Notes under the pieces: model-generated
Told to the model about the DNA's origin: nothing
The model's database searches: none
Seen by the model: only the letters and a program-made list of their open reading frames with translations
Shown: piece after piece, positions 21,159 to 45,988 of the stretch
How the letters are laid out: each line of letters starts with the position of its first letter
Numbering within the stretch: position 1 is the stretch's first letter
Position numbers and translations under genes: made by a program
Assembly (NCBI GenBank): GCA_001626925.1
Contig: LUOR01000012.1
Location: 856-64,855 of the forward strand
Length of the DNA stretch: 64,000 nt
Direction of reading: 5' to 3'
From: Moraxellaceae bacterium REDSEA-S32_B1
GTDB lineage: Bacteria > Pseudomonadota > Gammaproteobacteria > Pseudomonadales > Moraxellaceae

Positions 21159-22247
21159 TTAGACTGTAAATAACAATTGAAGCCACGCAATCATCGCAAC
21201 GACGATCGACACAGGGACAACGATACGAATCAAAATTCGCCACAGGTTATAGCTGATTTCACTTTTAAAATTCAGTGATTTACGCAAATGACTAATCTTC
21301 ATCAACCACCCTGCAAATATTGCATAGGCAAGACAAAGTACCAAACCGAGTACAATTAGTATTGGATATAAAACATTACTGATCGGCAACGCCCAAATCA
21401 ATATTGGAATCAGCAAAATCAAAGCTTGAATAGGCAACGCCACTTGACGTTGAATCAGTTGCGCCCGAACCAATTGCAATAGATAACCAGACAAGCCCAA
21501 TGCACCTATTAACAATGCCAGATCTTGGACTTCGGTTGTGGCCTGATTCGCCCAAAGCATTGCCAATAAACCAAGTGCTTGGGCAATCCAAATGGGTAAT
21601 ACAATCGGCGTACTTGGTGATTTCTCTGTACCTGTAGACAAGCTTTGCGTAGCAGACTGCCAATACACACCTAAGCCCAAAGCGCCAGTGACTAAGGTCA
21701 AGGTTACGACTTTTGCCCACTCTGCAAAGCTCACCCCTGTCCATTGCCAAACACCCTGCTCTGCCAGCATACCCATTACCACATAAACCAACACAGCGAT
21801 AGCAGACACTGCGAGTAAGATCAATCTTGGCAACATCGACAAAGCAACTGCGACGATGGCTAAAACTAAAATCGCAATACTTGGACTAAATTGAAGTGCA
21901 AACTGTGACATCACAGCGTTATTGGCATAATGTATAATCGCGCCTGCAAATAGTGGCACAGTCACAATCGCCAACCAGCTCATCACACGCCAATGCGTCG
22001 ATACATCCGCATCACGAGTCAGCTGCATCAAACCCTGTAACGGTGCAGACTTGGCACGTTTAGCCAAACCAACTTCCATATACATTGCAGGCAATGCCAA
22101 AACGAGCATGGTCACCACCCACAATATTAAAAAGTCATACTGCTGATAAGCCACCAAACCTAAAGTTGGCGCCAAAGTCACACTGAACAAGAATGATAAA
22201 CAAAATGCCAAAACTGGCGTGATCCATGTCGGTTGCTGTTGCATCAT
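21159..22247 (-). CDS. Multi-pass membrane protein, distant sodium-dependent (SNF-like) transporter
   Basis: About 11 hydrophobic segments; LPAMYMEVGL and LIRIVVP resemble SNF-family motifs. Confidence 0.65.
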   Translation of the reverse strand: MMQQQPTWITPVLAFCLSFLFSVTLAPTLGLVAYQQYDFLILWVVTMLVLALPAMYMEVGLAKRAKSAPLQGLMQLTRDADVSTHWRVMSWLAIVTVPLFAGAIIHYANNAVMSQFALQFSPSIAILVLAIVAVALSMLPRLILLAVSAIAVLVYVVMGMLAEQGVWQWTGVSFAEWAKVVTLTLVTGALGLGVYWQSATQSLSTGTEKSPSTPIVLPIWIAQALGLLAMLWANQATTEVQDLALLIGALGLSGYLLQLVRAQLIQRQVALPIQALILLIPILIWALPISNVLYPILIVLGLVLCLAYAIFAGWLMKISHLRKSLNFKSEISYNLWRILIRIVVPVSIVVAMIAWLQLLFTV

Positions 22248-22333: not shown

Positions 22334-23068
22334 TTAGTAAGACACAAAATCCTTCTTAAGAGTATAAAATTTCATATTAACTGCTATCTCATCAGATAGA
22401 TGAATAGCTCTTAGCCTATCCAGAGCTTGCTCTTCAGAGAAACCCTGCTGAATGAATTCACCAAATTGCTTTGCAATACCATCTCTAATTATTTTTCGAG
22501 CGTTTTTTAAATATGTTTCTTCATTAAGGTTCAATTTATCAATAGAGTTTTGTGCCAACCCCTTAAGTTCCATTGGGCATTGTTTATCAACAATCATTTT
22601 TCCATCACTTTCAAATGTAAATATTTTAGTATCAGGAGGAATTTTTAGCGGATTTAATATGATAGTTGTCCAATCATGTTCTCCTTTATCAGCATCACAA
22701 TGTCGCTTTCTTTTATTTTTAATGAAACGTTCATCATGTTTAAAATAAAGACGTTGTGTTCCCCCATGACAACATCCAAGTAAGTTACTCCATGTTAAAT
22801 GAGCATTCTCTTTAGTATTAGGTAGTAGTGTCTTAGACTTAGGATAAAAATGCTCCACTCTGAAATCTTTCATATGACTTGTTTCATCTACATCAAAGTC
22901 AATTTCACAGTAACAACAAATACCTAACTGATCTTTTTTAATTGTATCTTGAACAATTGCATGTGCTTCTTGAGCCACAGCAACAAAATTTTCCCAAGTA
23001 GCATTAGGATTCTGCGACAAATATTCAGACAATCCATCAGGACAGTTTGACTTTAAAATATGTTTCAT
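22334..23068 (-). CDS. ptuB: Retron-associated HNH nuclease, PtuB/TIGR02646-like
   Basis: CCYCE, VEHFYPK, WSNLLGCC, HCDADKG, ILNP, IDKLNLN; ATGA overlap with the ATPase. Confidence 0.88.
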   Translation of the reverse strand: MKHILKSNCPDGLSEYLSQNPNATWENFVAVAQEAHAIVQDTIKKDQLGICCYCEIDFDVDETSHMKDFRVEHFYPKSKTLLPNTKENAHLTWSNLLGCCHGGTQRLYFKHDERFIKNKRKRHCDADKGEHDWTTIILNPLKIPPDTKIFTFESDGKMIVDKQCPMELKGLAQNSIDKLNLNEETYLKNARKIIRDGIAKQFGEFIQQGFSEEQALDRLRAIHLSDEIAVNMKFYTLKKDFVSY

Positions 23069-24645
23069 TGTTTTGAGCGTTTAAATTTTCTTAAGGAAAT
23101 TTCGATATCAATTTGATCTAGTTCAGTTTCTTTATTTTTACCCCAAGCATCTAGCTTTTCACGTAATAATTTAGCCTCATCAGAGTCCCATTTATCGTGA
23201 TTAACTAACTCAATATACTGATCTAACCATTGGACTTCTTCCACTTCTTGAGGTCTTGGATCAACATTAAAAACATCCTTTAATACTACATTAGACTGAG
23301 CACCTTTTGTAAAATCTGGAATTTCATATTCATATGTATTATTTGAATTTATATAAATAGAACGTATAGATTCTGGCTCTACCGTGGTGATTACATGTGG
23401 ACTATGAGTAGTAATAATAAACTGTAAATTTGGAAAAGATTCCCTTAAAATTAAAATAATTTGTTGTTGCCACGTCGGGTGTAAATGTAGCTCTATCTCA
23501 TCAATCAAAATAACACCATTGCCATGCAATGGATTATCAGAAACATTATTCAATAAGATTAATCTTCTTGCAATATCACCAAGCAGACCAAATAGCACTC
23601 TTTGACCATCAGAAAATTGATCTAAAAAAATAGATTCTTTTTCCAACTGAATAAAAATTTTATCTTTTCCATCATCATTGTTAATTAATTCAATATTTTT
23701 TAAGTCTTTATAGATACCTTTAAATAATTTCTCCAAAGATACAATAATATTCTGTGCTTTCAAATTTAATTCTTGGTTAGGGTATACTTTTATGATTGAA
23801 AACAAATCCTCATATACCTCATATAAAGGATGCTCTTTGTTATTCGCCCCTGTTTCTAAAAGAATATCAATTTGCGACTGAATCTTCTGCCTTTCTGAAT
23901 TAGCAACAACAGGTTCTGATACCTTTAATAGCTGAACCAACCACTCATAGAAAAGATCAAATGATGTCCTATAATTTAGAGCATTGTCATACCCATCAAT
24001 TTTTTCAAAATTAATTTTTTGACTATTATTTGCTCCTTTTTGCAGTCGATCAATTCCATAGTAAGCAAACAATGGTAAATTAATATCTTTATACTCATTC
24101 AAATAACGAATATCACGCCCTAAGTTACGATAATTAATAAGTTCGCTCTTTAAATCACTCTTTAAACCATCAATTTGACGTGCTATTCTGCCTCGTAATT
24201 TATTTTTACTAGAACCAATAGAAAATTCACAATCTATATATGCTCCTAATTTTTTTTTCTTAGCATCATTATTAATTTCATCCTCTTCTATACGACCTCC
24301 ATTTGTATTATCTTTTCTTGTTGTTGCTGCAATCCACATTAAATTTCTACGAATAGCTTCCAAAAGGCTAGTCTTACCTACACCATTTTCACCTATAAAG
24401 ACTGTTAATCTTTCATCCAAATTAATTTTTAAATTTTTAATCTTCTTAAAATTAGAGACATTAAGCTCATCTAAAGAAACATGGCTATACAATATTGTAG
24501 TTGCTTGAGTAAATATTTCTAAAGCCCGTCCTTCGTTCTTTTCAAAACCATTCAGCCCATCTTTATAGTTCAAAAACAACTGAACTGCTGAATTAAAGTT
24601 ACCATTCTTAGCATTAGAGATGAGATGTCTTTGATTATTATCCAT
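23065..24645 (-). CDS. ptuA: Retron-associated ABC/AAA ATPase, PtuA-like
   Basis: GENGVGKT Walker A, FSDGQR signature, ILIDEIELHLHP, TTHSP; start overlaps the RT stop. Confidence 0.92.
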   Translation of the reverse strand: MDNNQRHLISNAKNGNFNSAVQLFLNYKDGLNGFEKNEGRALEIFTQATTILYSHVSLDELNVSNFKKIKNLKINLDERLTVFIGENGVGKTSLLEAIRRNLMWIAATTRKDNTNGGRIEEDEINNDAKKKKLGAYIDCEFSIGSSKNKLRGRIARQIDGLKSDLKSELINYRNLGRDIRYLNEYKDINLPLFAYYGIDRLQKGANNSQKINFEKIDGYDNALNYRTSFDLFYEWLVQLLKVSEPVVANSERQKIQSQIDILLETGANNKEHPLYEVYEDLFSIIKVYPNQELNLKAQNIIVSLEKLFKGIYKDLKNIELINNDDGKDKIFIQLEKESIFLDQFSDGQRVLFGLLGDIARRLILLNNVSDNPLHGNGVILIDEIELHLHPTWQQQIILILRESFPNLQFIITTHSPHVITTVEPESIRSIYINSNNTYEYEIPDFTKGAQSNVVLKDVFNVDPRPQEVEEVQWLDQYIELVNHDKWDSDEAKLLREKLDAWGKNKETELDQIDIEISLRKFKRSKQ

Positions 24646-25585
24646 TATTGCTTCCTGAACGTAAATTAGCCAAAGTTTTTCCTGAATATTTCCGCTCTAA
24701 GGCATTTAGAAACTGAGGTTCTATATGCTGAACAAAGCTTAAATATCCTCGTAAGTAACTCAGATCAGATTCACTAATTTCACTATTAGTAAACTTATAA
24801 ACTAGCCCTTTAATATATCTTTTCTTTTTTCTACCTATTGATAGCATAGCGTCATTCGTTACTGTAACGCCAGTTATATGCCTATTATGTTTTTTTGAAG
24901 AAAAAACTGTTTTAAATGCATTAATAGATATTCGACCACCATACAGTTCCTGCAATATTTTTTCCACCTTCACAGGCAAATCAAATAGCAATGTTTTTTG
25001 ATCCGTTGAGAAGCTAAGGTCGTCAGCATAACGTGTATATTTAATTCCATTATCATGACAATATTCACTAATTTGGACATCGAAAAGATACATACAAAAA
25101 TTTGAAATTAAGGGAGAACTAGGAGCACCTATACTCAAAACCAATTTCTTAGAATATTTGCTAGGTTGCCAAAAAACTATTCTTTCTATCCAGAATTTAT
25201 CTAAAAAATCAAAATACAAGTTATTTTTCTCGCAAGACTCCCATAATATTTTAGGCGTAATTGAGTGAAAAAAGTCTGAAAAATCCATTTTTAGAAAGTA
25301 CGTATTATTTTTATGGATTAATGCATTGTCTTTAATACTTTTTTTACATTGATACGCTGTAGCCAATGAATGTACTGGTAACATCTGCTCAAATTGTGCA
25401 ACTAAATAATTTTGATATAATTTTAATTCAGGAGTAGGTTGAGCAATAGTACGAGTACCTGACGTTCTTTTGGGAATTTGATAAACTTTATATTTTCTCG
25501 GCGCATCTTGCAGAAACAGAAAAAAACTGCTCTGATTTAAATTGAATTTTTTTAGAAAATTATTTAACAAATTGACTTTAGACAC
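24638..25585 (-). CDS. ret: Retron reverse transcriptase, Ec78/Ec83-like clade
   Basis: APRKYKVY.IPKR, region X NALIH, GAPSSP, YTRYADD, region Y NRHITG (VTG variant). Confidence 0.96.
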   Translation of the reverse strand: MSKVNLLNNFLKKFNLNQSSFFLFLQDAPRKYKVYQIPKRTSGTRTIAQPTPELKLYQNYLVAQFEQMLPVHSLATAYQCKKSIKDNALIHKNNTYFLKMDFSDFFHSITPKILWESCEKNNLYFDFLDKFWIERIVFWQPSKYSKKLVLSIGAPSSPLISNFCMYLFDVQISEYCHDNGIKYTRYADDLSFSTDQKTLLFDLPVKVEKILQELYGGRISINAFKTVFSSKKHNRHITGVTVTNDAMLSIGRKKKRYIKGLVYKFTNSEISESDLSYLRGYLSFVQHIEPQFLNALERKYSGKTLANLRSGSNNG

Positions 25586-25605
25586 AATATTAACCCATTA
25601 AAGCA

Positions 25606-25630
25606 GTTTAGAGGAGATACTCCTCTAAAC
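25606..25630. other. Perfect 11-bp hairpin between the retron ncRNA and the RT start
   Basis: GTTTAGAGGAG-ATA-CTCCTCTAAAC. Confidence 0.85.
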
Positions 25631-25633
25631 CAC

Positions 25634-25772
25634 ACTCTTTACTTGAGCAAAAGTTTCAATTATTTGCGATTGCAATGAGCGAATCATTGAAACTTTTGTA
25701 TCACAAAAGCATCAATAAATTAGAGTCTGGCTAAACACCCGACTAGACTGTTACGTCTAAAAACTAAAGAGC
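25634..25772 (-). ncRNA. Retron msr-msd ncRNA
   Basis: a1 CTCTTTA (25771-25765) pairs with a2 TAAAGAG (25641-25635); G:G juxtaposition at 25764/25642; two msr stems; msd hairpin 25648-25698; cDNA starts TTGA. Confidence 0.9.
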
Positions 25773-25778
25773 TAGAAC

Positions 25779-25807
25779 ATTCTAAAATATTCTTAAGCAC
25801 TTAACAA
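25779..25807 (-). promoter_or_regulatory. Retron promoter
   Basis: TTGTTA-N17-TAGAAT placing +1 at about 25772-25773, the first base of a1. Confidence 0.7.
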
Positions 25808-25859: not shown

Positions 25860-25884
25860 AAAAAGATCGCCGAAGCGACCTTTT
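25860..25884 (-). terminator. groESL terminator
   Basis: AAAAGGUCGC-UUCG-GCGAUCUUUUU. Confidence 0.9.
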
Positions 25885-25907: not shown

Positions 25908-27566
<1,659 letters not shown>

Positions 27567-42411: not shown

Positions 42412-43591
42412 TCAATGAATATGCTGAAAACTGCTTGAATAACTCAGCAATATTCTCATTAATTCTGCTTGGCTATTGCAGTCAACCTTAGCGAAAATAT
42501 GCTTAAAATATGTTCTCACTGTACTGAGTGTCATGCCACATTCTGTAGAAATCTGGGCAAAGTCTAGCCCTTGCACGAAATGCTCGCAAATCTCTACCTC
42601 TCGCTTAGATAGCTTAAAATTCTTCATCAAATAGGATTTTGCCAAATGCACTTGAGGCTGAGAGGAAGTCAAAAATATCGCTACCTGGTGAGATGGTAAC
42701 CTTGTACTTACTTGATCCCCAACATTTTTACCGACATGGTTTTTCAGCATAGAAAATGGAACCACGGAAATTAACATCGGTTTTTGATCAAACTCATCCG
42801 TCAATGACATCACACCACCAATCTGTTCATTTTCTAAATTTACAATGTGGCTTTGAAGCATTGCGCTTAAAATATATTTGATCTCTCACGTTCACTTTTA
42901 ACCGATTAAAGCGGTCAATCGAAATATGGGAGGTGGTTTCAATCAAATCTTGTGCTTGCTTATTCGTATAAATCAAACGACTATCTTGATCTAAAATAAT
43001 TACGCCTACTCGAATATAATCCAACAAACTCGATAAATTTTGATTTTCTTGTTTTACTTCACTAAATTGTCGATGAATCTGAAGAGCCCTTCTAAGGTGC
43101 ACACCCAACCGAGCTAATATATCAAGTTGAGTTTGCTCAAAAGGCGTTGCAGTTGGCGCACGATGCGTTGCTAACACTGCCCATTGGTACTTTGCCTGTT
43201 CAAGTAAAACCGCACAGACGTGGCTGATCCCAGTCGGTTTTAAGCACTTTTCATAAAAGATATACTCATCAGTTCCGAGCATTGTTGCGTAAGAAGTGAA
43301 ATCTTGTTTTACAGCGCCACCTAAGCCAACACCTTGCCAATGTGGCGTATGTAATTTCATATCAATGACTTTGATTTGTTCATCTGCATAAGCTCGTAAC
43401 CCTTCTTCTGGAATATTATGAGAAAAGGTAAAATCAAACTTTGGGTTGAGCTGATCGCATACTGTAAAAATTGCTGTTTTACTTTCGGTATAATCTACAA
43501 TTTCCTCTAGTACGTTCGACCATAGCGCTGAATTCATAGAGGCGTCATAGATCGTTCCAATGAGTCGATTTTCTCGCTCAATATCTAGCAT
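42412..43591 (-). pseudogene. LuxR-type regulator split by a +1 frameshift
   Basis: ORFs 42827-43609 and 42412-42861 fuse into one 392-aa frame (...RDQIYLSAMLQ...) if one base of the A4 run at 42869-42872 is removed. C-terminal LSKREVEI...T..TVRTYFKHIFAK HTH. Confidence 0.8.
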
Positions 43592-43832
43592 GGCTACTCC
43601 CCCAGACAATATACTTATAAATAATTAAAACTTCACTTATACAAATTTTTGGCAACTTTTTCTAGTTTTAATTTTCCACAATTGTACTTAATTCACCTTA
43701 CATTTCATATCTTTACAACCATGAATTATTTAAAGCTATGATTTAAATATAAATAATATCCCCATTTGAGGATAGGTATAAAAAATATATTTTATTAGTA
43801 TGTAATGACGATTAAAAAAAAGGATGATCGTG

Positions 43833-45038
43833 ATGAAAAAGACGCTTTTAATTTCTATGCTCACTATGAGCCTCATTGCCTGTGGTGGTGGAAGTTCTAA
43901 TTCCTCAAATAATCAATCAGAAGGTGAAACCGAGGGCAATACAAATACTGGAGTACTTACAGATGGGGATATTGCAGGAGTAAGCTATACGACCAGTAGT
44001 GGACTTACAGGCACTACCAATGAAAATGGTGAGTTTAGCTACGCAGATGGAGATCAAGTTACTTTCAAAATCGGTGATGTACAACTCGGCGAAACCATCG
44101 ATGCAATCGCTCGTATCACACCATTAGATTTAGCTGAATCAGAGAATTCTAGAACTAATCTTTTGGTATTTTTACAGTCTTTAGATAGCGATGCTAATCA
44201 TGATAATGGCATTAATATTTCAACCACAGTGAGTACAGCTTTAGCTAATCAAACCATTGACTTTGAACAGTCACCTGAAGATTTCATTAGCGATGCTACA
44301 TTTGTGGACACAATGGCTCAAGCTGGATTAGAAACAGTCGTTTCCCCTAGTCAAGCAATGGCAAACTTCCAAAACGCATTTTATAAAGACATCTCTGGTG
44401 TGTGGCAATACTCTAATCAGCAAAGCGGTACGCCGATTAATGTCTTGATATATATAGATGAAGATGGACAGTATCTACTCGGCGAGTTTTCCACACAAGA
44501 CCAAGCAGGTCAGCCTGGACTTGAAGCGGGTGATATTAACTGGAATGCTGTAACTACGAGCTTAACACCATCTATCAACATTGATACAAATGATGAGTGG
44601 GGATTATCTAATCCTGTCGGCTTGCATCACTTAAACTTTGACGGCACAGATCTGATTTTAACTGAGCCCGATATTCAACAAACTTATATCTTTACAAAAG
44701 TTAAAAATCAAGATAACCAAATCATTGGTTCATGGCAGTACAGTAAAGGACAAGTCTTTAGCTTCCTAGAAAATGGCACTTACTTTATGCTTGATCCAAT
44801 AGGTGATGATCAAGTAGAGGTTAGCGATTCACCTTGTGGTGGTGCAGGGATTGAATCTGGCAAATATACCATTAACGGCTCAAACCTTATTATTCATGAT
44901 GTCAGTATTGATACCAATGACTGCGCTGGTCTATCTGACAACCAGCAAGGGCAAACTTTACCGTTTAGTATTCAAGGTAATGAATTTCAGTTTAGTCCTG
45001 CAAGTGAAGGAACTTTTACCATAAATCGTATTATTTAA
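43833..45038 (+). CDS. Lipoprotein with FilF-like N-terminal domain (putative surface protein)
   Basis: Lipobox LIAC followed by a G/S/N-rich tether; acidic beta-rich body; divergent from the LuxR gene. Confidence 0.8.
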   Translation: MKKTLLISMLTMSLIACGGGSSNSSNNQSEGETEGNTNTGVLTDGDIAGVSYTTSSGLTGTTNENGEFSYADGDQVTFKIGDVQLGETIDAIARITPLDLAESENSRTNLLVFLQSLDSDANHDNGINISTTVSTALANQTIDFEQSPEDFISDATFVDTMAQAGLETVVSPSQAMANFQNAFYKDISGVWQYSNQQSGTPINVLIYIDEDGQYLLGEFSTQDQAGQPGLEAGDINWNAVTTSLTPSINIDTNDEWGLSNPVGLHHLNFDGTDLILTEPDIQQTYIFTKVKNQDNQIIGSWQYSKGQVFSFLENGTYFMLDPIGDDQVEVSDSPCGGAGIESGKYTINGSNLIIHDVSIDTNDCAGLSDNQQGQTLPFSIQGNEFQFSPASEGTFTINRII

Positions 45039-45139
45039 CTTCACGATAATACCAATGACCACAGTGATAATTACTCTCTGTGGTCTTTTTTCAAATCGTT
45101 TTGAAAGCAACCATCAATAAAAAATCAGGTATTTAAATA

Positions 45140-45988
45140 TTAATACACATCCGCACGCGTCTTTCTCACCAAACTAGGATCATGCTTTTCACGCTCTAAT
45201 CGTTCGACTTTGGTCATTGCCTGCAATTCAATTTTGCCATCTTTAAACAAAATCATCTCTCCAGGCTGATAGGCCTGCCACAATTCATTATCGGTCAACG
45301 GTTCTGTAGTAATCACTGCGACACGATCTTCTGGTGTGGTGACTGTGCTAAAGTCGATATCAACATCTAAGTCAATGAGCTTTGCATGTTGGAACGGATA
45401 CTCACGGATGAGCCAGTGAAGCTTGGTCGTGGCATAGCTAAATAAGGCTTGTCCATTCGATAAGAAAAAATTAAACGTCCCGTGCTCTGCAACCTTAGGA
45501 CAAATCTGCTGTAAATAGTTAAAAATATCTTCAAGGCTTGGATGTTCATTGCCGAATCTTAGTGCCAACTGGTCTAGCACATAACAAAATGCCAACTCAC
45601 TATCTGTATCCCCTACAGACTGAAATCGACCTGTGAGCTCGGGATTAAAATTTAAAAGGTCACCATTATGGGCAAAAATCCACTGTCTACCCCACAGCTC
45701 ACGCGCAAATGGATGTGAATTTTCTAAGTTAGTTTTGCCTTGAGTTGCCTTTCGAATGTGCGCAATCACATTGCGTGATTTGATCGGATAATTACGAATG
45801 AGATTTGCAATCGGTGACTCTAAGGCAGAATGATTGTCTACAAACAATCGACAGGCTTTTTCTTCAAAAAAAGCAATGCCAAAACCATCAGAATGATCCG
45901 ATGTGGCACCCGCACGCTGCGAAAACCCTCGAAATGAAAAATCGATATCGGTAGGCGTAGCGCAGTTCATTCCGAGCAATTGACACAT
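45140..45988 (-). CDS. Class II glutamine amidotransferase, YafJ-like
   Basis: N-terminal MCQLLGM, DGFG, AHIRKAT, N.HPF, FAHNG, G.TDSE. Confidence 0.92.
   Translation of the reverse strand: MCQLLGMNCATPTDIDFSFRGFSQRAGATSDHSDGFGIAFFEEKACRLFVDNHSALESPIANLIRNYPIKSRNVIAHIRKATQGKTNLENSHPFARELWGRQWIFAHNGDLLNFNPELTGRFQSVGDTDSELAFCYVLDQLALRFGNEHPSLEDIFNYLQQICPKVAEHGTFNFFLSNGQALFSYATTKLHWLIREYPFQHAKLIDLDVDIDFSTVTTPEDRVAVITTEPLTDNELWQAYQPGEMILFKDGKIELQAMTKVERLEREKHDPSLVRKTRADVY

Follow-up and report, generated by a model that had tools for sequence, protein, structure and literature searches.

The 64,000-nucleotide (nt) stretch of contig LUOR01000012.1 from Moraxellaceae bacterium REDSEA-S32_B1 that was analyzed here (hereafter the window) carries on its minus strand, from 25807 to 22334, an operon that is judged, with a probability of about 0.88, to be a functional type I-A retron anti-phage system, expected to work as the retrons Ec78 and Ec83 do. 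Read in that direction, the parts are a promoter-like site, an msr/msd noncoding RNA (ncRNA), a retron reverse transcriptase (RT), the ATPase PtuA, and the HNH nuclease PtuB (Table 1). The operon measures 3.5 kilobases (kb) and has a guanine plus cytosine (GC) content of 30.8% (commonly quoted as ~31%), versus 40.6% for the whole window. The open reading frames (ORFs) of RT and PtuA overlap by 8 nt and those of PtuA and PtuB by 4 nt, no frameshift or stop codon interrupts any of the three, and every catalytic motif is intact; as read from the sequence, the three genes are translationally coupled. An earlier, sequence-only reading had proposed a type I-A retron-PtuAB system of the Ec78/Ec83/Vc95 class at this site, with the order ncRNA-RT-ATPase-HNH, coupled ORFs and intact catalytic motifs. 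The present analysis bears this out. A single operon holds an msr-msd upstream on the RT strand with its a1/a2 repeats and branching G, a I-A-type RT (in which the usual VTG reads ITG), a PtuA with Walker motifs and an N-terminal extension (NTE), and a PtuB of family TIGR02646; the YADD, Walker A/B, and HNH motifs are all present, and the order and overlaps are as proposed. Its limits were also exact, because 25807 belongs to the -35 hexamer and 22334 to the stop codon of PtuB.

The ncRNA was recognized from one repeat to the other by a covariance model built from eight Acinetobacter-type ncRNAs, and its msr part by the full length of an Rfam model (Table 1). The covariance model returned one sense match per RT-bearing locus, including two E. 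coli I-A retrons and one Methylococcaceae retron, and no match in the 17 stand-alone Septu loci that served as a negative control, while the Rfam msr match exceeded its cut-off in 9/9 collected RT-bearing relatives. The predicted branching G at 25764 comes after UUA, as in the Rfam consensus, and is equivalent to A7/G8 of Ec83 (PMC12475279); two msr hairpins follow it, and then the msd stem. Folding of the region as a single sequence recovers the a1/a2 pairing, and comparison of the fold with shuffled sequence gave z values of -6.1 and -6.6, with none of 200 shuffles equaling it. In an alignment of 13 loci, which was fitted to the covariance model and is thus biased towards the model's own structure, all eight a1/a2 pairs are retained in every locus (six of them invariant), 96.6% of cells are paired as opposed to 27-49% with slid partners, 21 pairs have changed on both sides (16 of these within the 20-pair msd stem), and 0/500 shuffles reach any of five measures of covariation. 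This alignment replaced one made with MAFFT and RNAalifold, in which the distant msd stems were misaligned. The earlier reading had credited the locus with an ncRNA of its own, and this is true of the msd stem, the sequence of which alone is distinctive; it is not true of the msr core and the a1/a2 repeats, which are nearly invariant from Acinetobacter to E. coli.

The predicted multicopy single-stranded DNA (msDNA), when folded as DNA, forms the msd hairpin. Its length is predicted at ~72 nt since the distance from the conserved UUAUUGA to a2 is 70 nt here versus 76 nt in an Ec78-type E. coli locus, and the msDNA of Ec78 is reportedly 78 nt long. Between a2 and the RT start, a hairpin followed by a U-run is shared by every one of the Acinetobacter relatives and by the Ec78-type E. 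coli locus, and because the hairpin is kept while its sequences differ, compensatory changes are indicated; this element may act as a leaky terminator or an attenuator. As a side observation, the window from 25595 to 25700, which spans the msd stem and this next hairpin, gave a sub-threshold match (26 bits versus a gathering score of 80) to STnc400, a Salmonella small RNA family in Rfam, a hint that STnc400 may represent the msd together with the terminator of a retron ncRNA in Salmonella.

Among PADLOC profiles, RT_I-A was the top match for the RT at 430 bits, with RT_II-A second at 376 bits, and the NCBIfam model retron_St85_RT scored 327.7 bits versus a cut-off of 235. The best chain in the Protein Data Bank (PDB) was 22et_A, titled only 'Retron' (301 bits, E 1e-88), and the chains named as Ec78 RT gave 292-297 bits and that of Ec83 270 bits. 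The Ec78 RT is accordingly among the closest solved, and identity to the Ec78-type E. coli RT is ~48%; both systems have a Lys-rich loop in the RT palm and the same ncRNA architecture, with a hairpin and U-run behind a2. The N-terminus of the RT can be aligned with those of its relatives, which supports the GTG start.

PtuA contains the Pfam domains AAA_15, AAA_21, and AAA_23, with Walker A (GENGVGKT, residues 85-92), Walker B (VILIDE, 378-383), SDGQ (345), and TTHS (412) motifs. In the PDB its closest match is the PtuA of Ec78 (245 bits, 32% identity); the PtuA of Ec83 scored 174 bits, in a match that starts at residue 7 and so includes the N-terminal region. The first ~57 amino acids (aa) have no counterpart in the PtuAs of stand-alone Septu systems, for which the N-terminal alignments, where there are any, begin at residues 49-58. 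The PtuA of Ec78 carries a retron-specific NTE that contacts the RT and ncRNA (PMC12819146), and the extension in the window corresponds to it.

A Pfam search of PtuB gave no match, and TIGR02646 recognized it at 87 bits versus a cut-off of 52. Its motifs are CCYC (51-54), VEH (71-73), WSNL (93), and CCHGG (99), of which C51, C54, H73, N95, and C100 are invariant across the family. A phmmer search of the PDB at E 0.01 returned no Ec78 PtuB, and its match to the PtuB of Ec83 (9e8z_E) reached 75 bits (E 4e-20), with H73 aligned to the catalytic His that is mutated in the dead Ec83 entry 9o4a_C (H71 in Ec83 numbering). An AlphaFold model made from 26 homologues (predicted local distance difference test, pLDDT, 85.5; predicted template modeling score, pTM, 0.83) retrieved 12 significant hits with Foldseek, all of them PtuB chains, in the order Ec83 (template modeling score, TM, 0.72), Ec78, and E. 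coli Septu. The PtuB of Ec83 is thus the best match in both sequence and fold, although it is just ~28-30% identical and the window protein lacks its last ~15 C-terminal residues (244 versus 260 aa). The nuclease had previously been described as a divergent HNH protein; it is an Ec83/Septu-like PtuB, and its likeness to the PtuB of Ec78 is weak. PtuA differs from PtuB in this respect, being nearer to Ec78 than to Ec83.

Table 1. Features of the retron operon in window coordinates, listed in operon order.
Feature	Position	Strand	Evidence or remark
Promoter-like, sigma-70-like site, TTGTTA-17-TAGAAT (-35, 17 nt, -10)	25779..25807	-	9/12 consensus matches; putative function
Complete retron ncRNA msr-msd, a1 to a2, 139 nt	25634..25772	-	Own covariance model R1, 137.9 bits, E 1e-27
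a1 inverted repeat, GCUCUUUA	25765..25772	-	8/8 positions pair with a2
Predicted branching (priming) G	25764	-	Directly after a1
msr part	25708..25772	-	Rfam RF00170, 62.9 bits versus gathering score 52, E 5e-11, full-length model match 1-69
msd stem-loop, 20-nt arms 25648-25667 and 25679-25698, 90% complementary, 11-nt loop	25648..25698	-	Repeat search
Predicted msDNA, ~72 nt	25642..25713	+	Plus strand is the complementary DNA (cDNA) sense; predicted, ends approximate
a2 inverted repeat, UAAAGAGU	25634..25641	-	Pairs with a1; fold and covariation
14-bp hairpin and U-run between a2 and RT start	25603..25633	-	Fold; terminator- or attenuator-like, putative function
Retron RT, 315 aa, GTG start, YADD 186-189	24638..25585	-	PADLOC and NCBIfam profiles
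PtuA, SMC/ABC-like ATPase, 526 aa	23065..24645	-	PADLOC PtuA 498 bits, ATPase_I-A 480
PtuB, HNH nuclease, 244 aa, catalytic His73, Cys51/54/99/100	22334..23068	-	PADLOC PtuB 233 bits, HNH_I-A 155

The structure and mechanism of the type I-A retron class were solved in 2025. More than 20 cryo-electron microscopy entries have been deposited for the class. In Ec78 (Retron-Eco7; PDB 9vhe, 9kjx, 9l7p, 9nnb), PtuAB is held on the RT-msDNA until the D15 nuclease of phage T5 cuts the msDNA, whereupon the freed PtuAB cleaves tyrosine transfer RNA (tRNA-Tyr) (PMC12673091, PMC12819146); that Ec78 PtuAB cleaves tRNA-Tyr had been stated correctly in the sequence-only reading (PMC12673091, PMC11555353). Ec83 (E. 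coli FORC82 type I-A retron; PDB 9e8z, 9e90, 9n69) matches the window operon in its four parts and in their order, in an E. coli rather than an Acinetobacter-like host, and its ncRNA is alike in its a1/a2 repeats, msr stem-loops, and long msd stem, although the sequence of that stem is unrelated. The Ec83/FORC82 complex consists of one RT, four ATPase subunits, one HNH subunit, RNA, and DNA; its msDNA is degraded by flap or exonucleases of phages T3, T5, and T7, and its HNH nuclease (H71) depletes all species of tRNA-Ser (PMC12475279).

Modeled on the solved Ec78 and Ec83 complexes, the window system would operate as follows. The RT would bind the msr hairpins and prime from the 2'-OH of G25764, beside the a1/a2 duplex, to copy the msd into the hairpin msDNA. 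The RT-msDNA would then scaffold PtuA dimers, with the NTE of PtuA touching the RT and basic loops touching the msDNA, and the C-terminal claws of PtuA would hold PtuB so that the nuclease is silent. Upon infection, a phage flap- or exonuclease of the T5 D15 or T3 exonuclease type would degrade the msDNA and free PtuAB, and the His73 HNH site of PtuB would cut a host tRNA, such that translation stalls and the infection aborts. Both tRNA-Tyr and tRNA-Ser have long variable arms. Since these are the targets of Ec78 and Ec83, respectively, a tRNA with a long variable arm might be expected as the target here as well, with tRNA-Ser somewhat favored because PtuB is Ec83-like; this is the weakest step of the scheme.

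Several observations weigh against this assignment. The RT reads ITG at residues 237-239 (window 24870-24878) in place of the VTG that is typical of retrons and is found in all six RTs with which it was compared, a difference that makes it unique among seven aligned I-A RTs. The promoter-like site agrees with the consensus at only 9 of 12 positions. With the NCBIfam equivalog models for the PtuA and PtuB of Ec78 (NF041760, NF041761), both proteins fall below the cut-offs (441.4 versus 500 bits for PtuA and 140.8 versus 150 bits for PtuB), and PtuB is 25% identical over 148 aa to the PtuB of the Ec78 type, to which it is barely related in sequence, and 34% identical to another E. coli I-A PtuB. 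Because the two proteins are members of the family that lie below the Ec78 equivalog cut-offs, specificity for tRNA-Tyr should not be transferred to them, and the low identity of PtuB to the E. coli I-A PtuBs means that substrate specificity is not transferable in general.

A working type I-A retron with a different effector output, in which the freed PtuAB cuts DNA, or a tRNA other than tRNA-Tyr or tRNA-Ser, is possible if rather unlikely. It is favored by the resemblance of the window PtuB to those of Septu (36-46% identity), which is as great as that to E. coli retron PtuBs (25-34%), and in keeping with this, 77 of the 80 best loci in a PtuB-based genome scan lacked an RT, being stand-alone Septu loci that could contribute little to the ncRNA comparison. 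Ec78 and Ec83 themselves already differ in target, and type I Septu has been reported to degrade DNA (PMC12475279). However, both of the type I-A retrons studied so far cleave tRNAs, a Septu acting on phage T6 is likewise reported to cleave the variable loop of tRNA-Tyr (PMC13096335), and the best fold match of the window PtuB is that of Ec83. The Septu PtuBs concerned, which come from Phascolarctobacterium, Acidaminococcaceae, Methylococcaceae, Sulfuricurvum, and others, equal or exceed those of E. coli retrons in their closeness to the window PtuB, a pattern that would fit PtuAB modules having been exchanged repeatedly between retrons and Septu.

Variation among close alleles bears on the same subject. 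The neighborhood formed by a membrane-protein gene, rnfH, bamE, and fur is shared with two metagenomic contigs, L096 (99.6% identical to the window) and L097 (91% nt identical). Over ~2.4 kb of this flank L096 is 100% identical to the window, and its 17 differences all fall in three tight patches (window 22630-23047 and 23520-23536): PtuB codons 8-22 hold 12 of them, PtuB codons 136-147 another 3, and PtuA codons 370 and 376 the remaining 2. In L096 the first of these patches matches alleles known from other retrons of Acinetobacter, an indication of short-patch recombination among retron alleles; hypermutation of the kind produced by diversity-generating retroelements was considered for the clustered PtuB differences and rejected on the same grounds. 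In comparison with L097 (window 22334-24986), identity is 98.9% for the 3' part of the RT, 93.2% for PtuA, and 86.3% for PtuB, with 88-94% for the housekeeping flanks, so that PtuB is the fastest-evolving gene of the retron and the RT is more conserved than fur. Also rather unlikely is the idea that the Acinetobacter PtuB clade may have a substrate of its own, neither tRNA-Tyr nor tRNA-Ser, or a surface for escape from inhibitors, and that PtuB residues 8-23 and 136-147 and PtuA residues 370-376 may be where short-patch exchange tunes specificity or the escape from anti-retron proteins of phages.

That the operon is a silent or decaying relic, with genes of intact appearance but without msDNA production or with its defense lost, is very improbable. 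The ITG motif, the weak promoter match, and an msd that is the shortest of the set compared (139 nt from a1 to a2 versus 142-170 nt) could be taken as signs of decay, as could the restricted distribution of the RT, which was absent from all 36 other same-genus species representatives sampled. The replacement of V by I is conservative, however, all pairs of the ncRNA are kept, and the ORFs and catalytic motifs are intact. Moreover, the operon occupies the same site in L096 and L097, and three intact ORFs retained at one site in a lineage whose nucleotide identity is only 91% argue for maintenance of the operon by selection.

That the locus is no I-A retron at all, being instead a stand-alone Septu whose neighboring RT is unrelated, or else a retron of type II-A (St85-like), can be dismissed with near certainty, even though the RT also scores on RT_II-A, the NCBI model is named 'St85 family', and the PtuAB genes lie within the Septu superfamily, since the RT scores higher on RT_I-A and Ec78-type RTs are named by that NCBI model too, the msr-msd is located directly upstream of an RT whose ORF overlaps that of PtuA, PtuA has a retron-type NTE, the four-part unit recurs in 12 other intact loci, and the ORFs downstream of the RT are PtuA and PtuB only, with neither the nucleoside deoxyribosyltransferase-like toxin nor the cold-shock-like protein that are the effectors of type II-A (St85/Sen2) retrons. 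Stand-alone Septu PtuAB (PDB 8ee4, 8ee7, 8eea) is a homologous ATPase and HNH pair that differs from the window system in lacking an RT, the ncRNA, and the NTE.

The nearest relatives of all four parts of this type I-A retron belong to a clade of Acinetobacter retrons adjacent to glyS (A. junii, A. baumannii, A. guillouiae, A. seifertii, and A. sichuanensis), at identities of 54-58% for the RT, 59-62% for PtuA, and 56-66% for PtuB; the msr is almost identical in this clade, the msd stem is largely shared, and the GC content is ~30-32%. NCBI already gives the name 'retron system putative HNH endonuclease' to the PtuB homologues of A. junii, A. baumannii, and A. guillouiae. In a scan separate from that of the 36 species, the representatives of two additional species, A. 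sichuanensis and A. seifertii, proved to carry the retron, while among 24 same-order genomes no close copy of the RT was present and two gave distant RT matches (30-36% identity). The label of an Acinetobacter-like host, applied in the earlier reading, fits the groEL gene, which is 82% identical in nucleotide sequence to that of A. baumannii. It may be added that E. coli E2348/69 (NZ_CP059840.2, 2460656-2461187) contains a retron remnant in which a conserved msr precedes a 'reverse transcriptase domain-containing protein' truncated to 133 aa, together with integrase fragments; this remnant has no PtuAB genes and adjoins hipBA and an ABC-three-component system.

The retrons of the Acinetobacter clade are convergent with glyS-glyQ in 9/9 loci with enough flank, a position suggestive of a conserved site of insertion, or a hotspot, in this clade, whereas the window retron lies between groEL and the membrane-protein gene, with rnfH, bamE, and fur beyond the latter. 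A spacer of 322 nt separates the groEL stop (25908) from the RT start; it includes a groEL terminator hairpin that can be read straight off the sequence (~25881..25860), and the promoter-like site ends 7 nt before the 5' end of the msr. In congeners, the membrane-protein gene has a homologue of window ORF 45140..45988 as its upstream neighbor, while homologues of window 42830..43624 and 42415..42885 come after groEL; in the window, ~23 kb of ordinary chromosomal genes lie between these congener partners (21159-22247, 25908-27545, and 42415-45988 being concerned). Because the congener neighbors of groEL and of the membrane-protein gene lie elsewhere in the window, the retron is placed at a synteny breakpoint. 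No simple empty site was found, as groEL does not adjoin the membrane-protein gene in the congeners, and no direct repeats, integrase, or tRNA gene were found flanking the operon. In L097 (2747-3838), the gene call splits the membrane-protein gene adjoining the retron into two ORFs (168 and 192 aa), the result of either a frameshift or an assembly error.

The locus is therefore a well-formed additional type I-A retron of a class that is already known. Its annotation and its homology-based mechanism follow from published work and open no new question, and a literature search turned up no paper on a type I-A retron of Acinetobacter. It provides a clean and compact example from the Acinetobacter lineage of a class for which mechanistic studies have until now been confined to E. 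coli. With an Ec78-like RT and PtuA and an Ec83/Septu-like PtuB, it is a useful natural chimera with which to ask what part determines the specificity for a tRNA, and it could matter for the phage susceptibility of Acinetobacter-like hosts.

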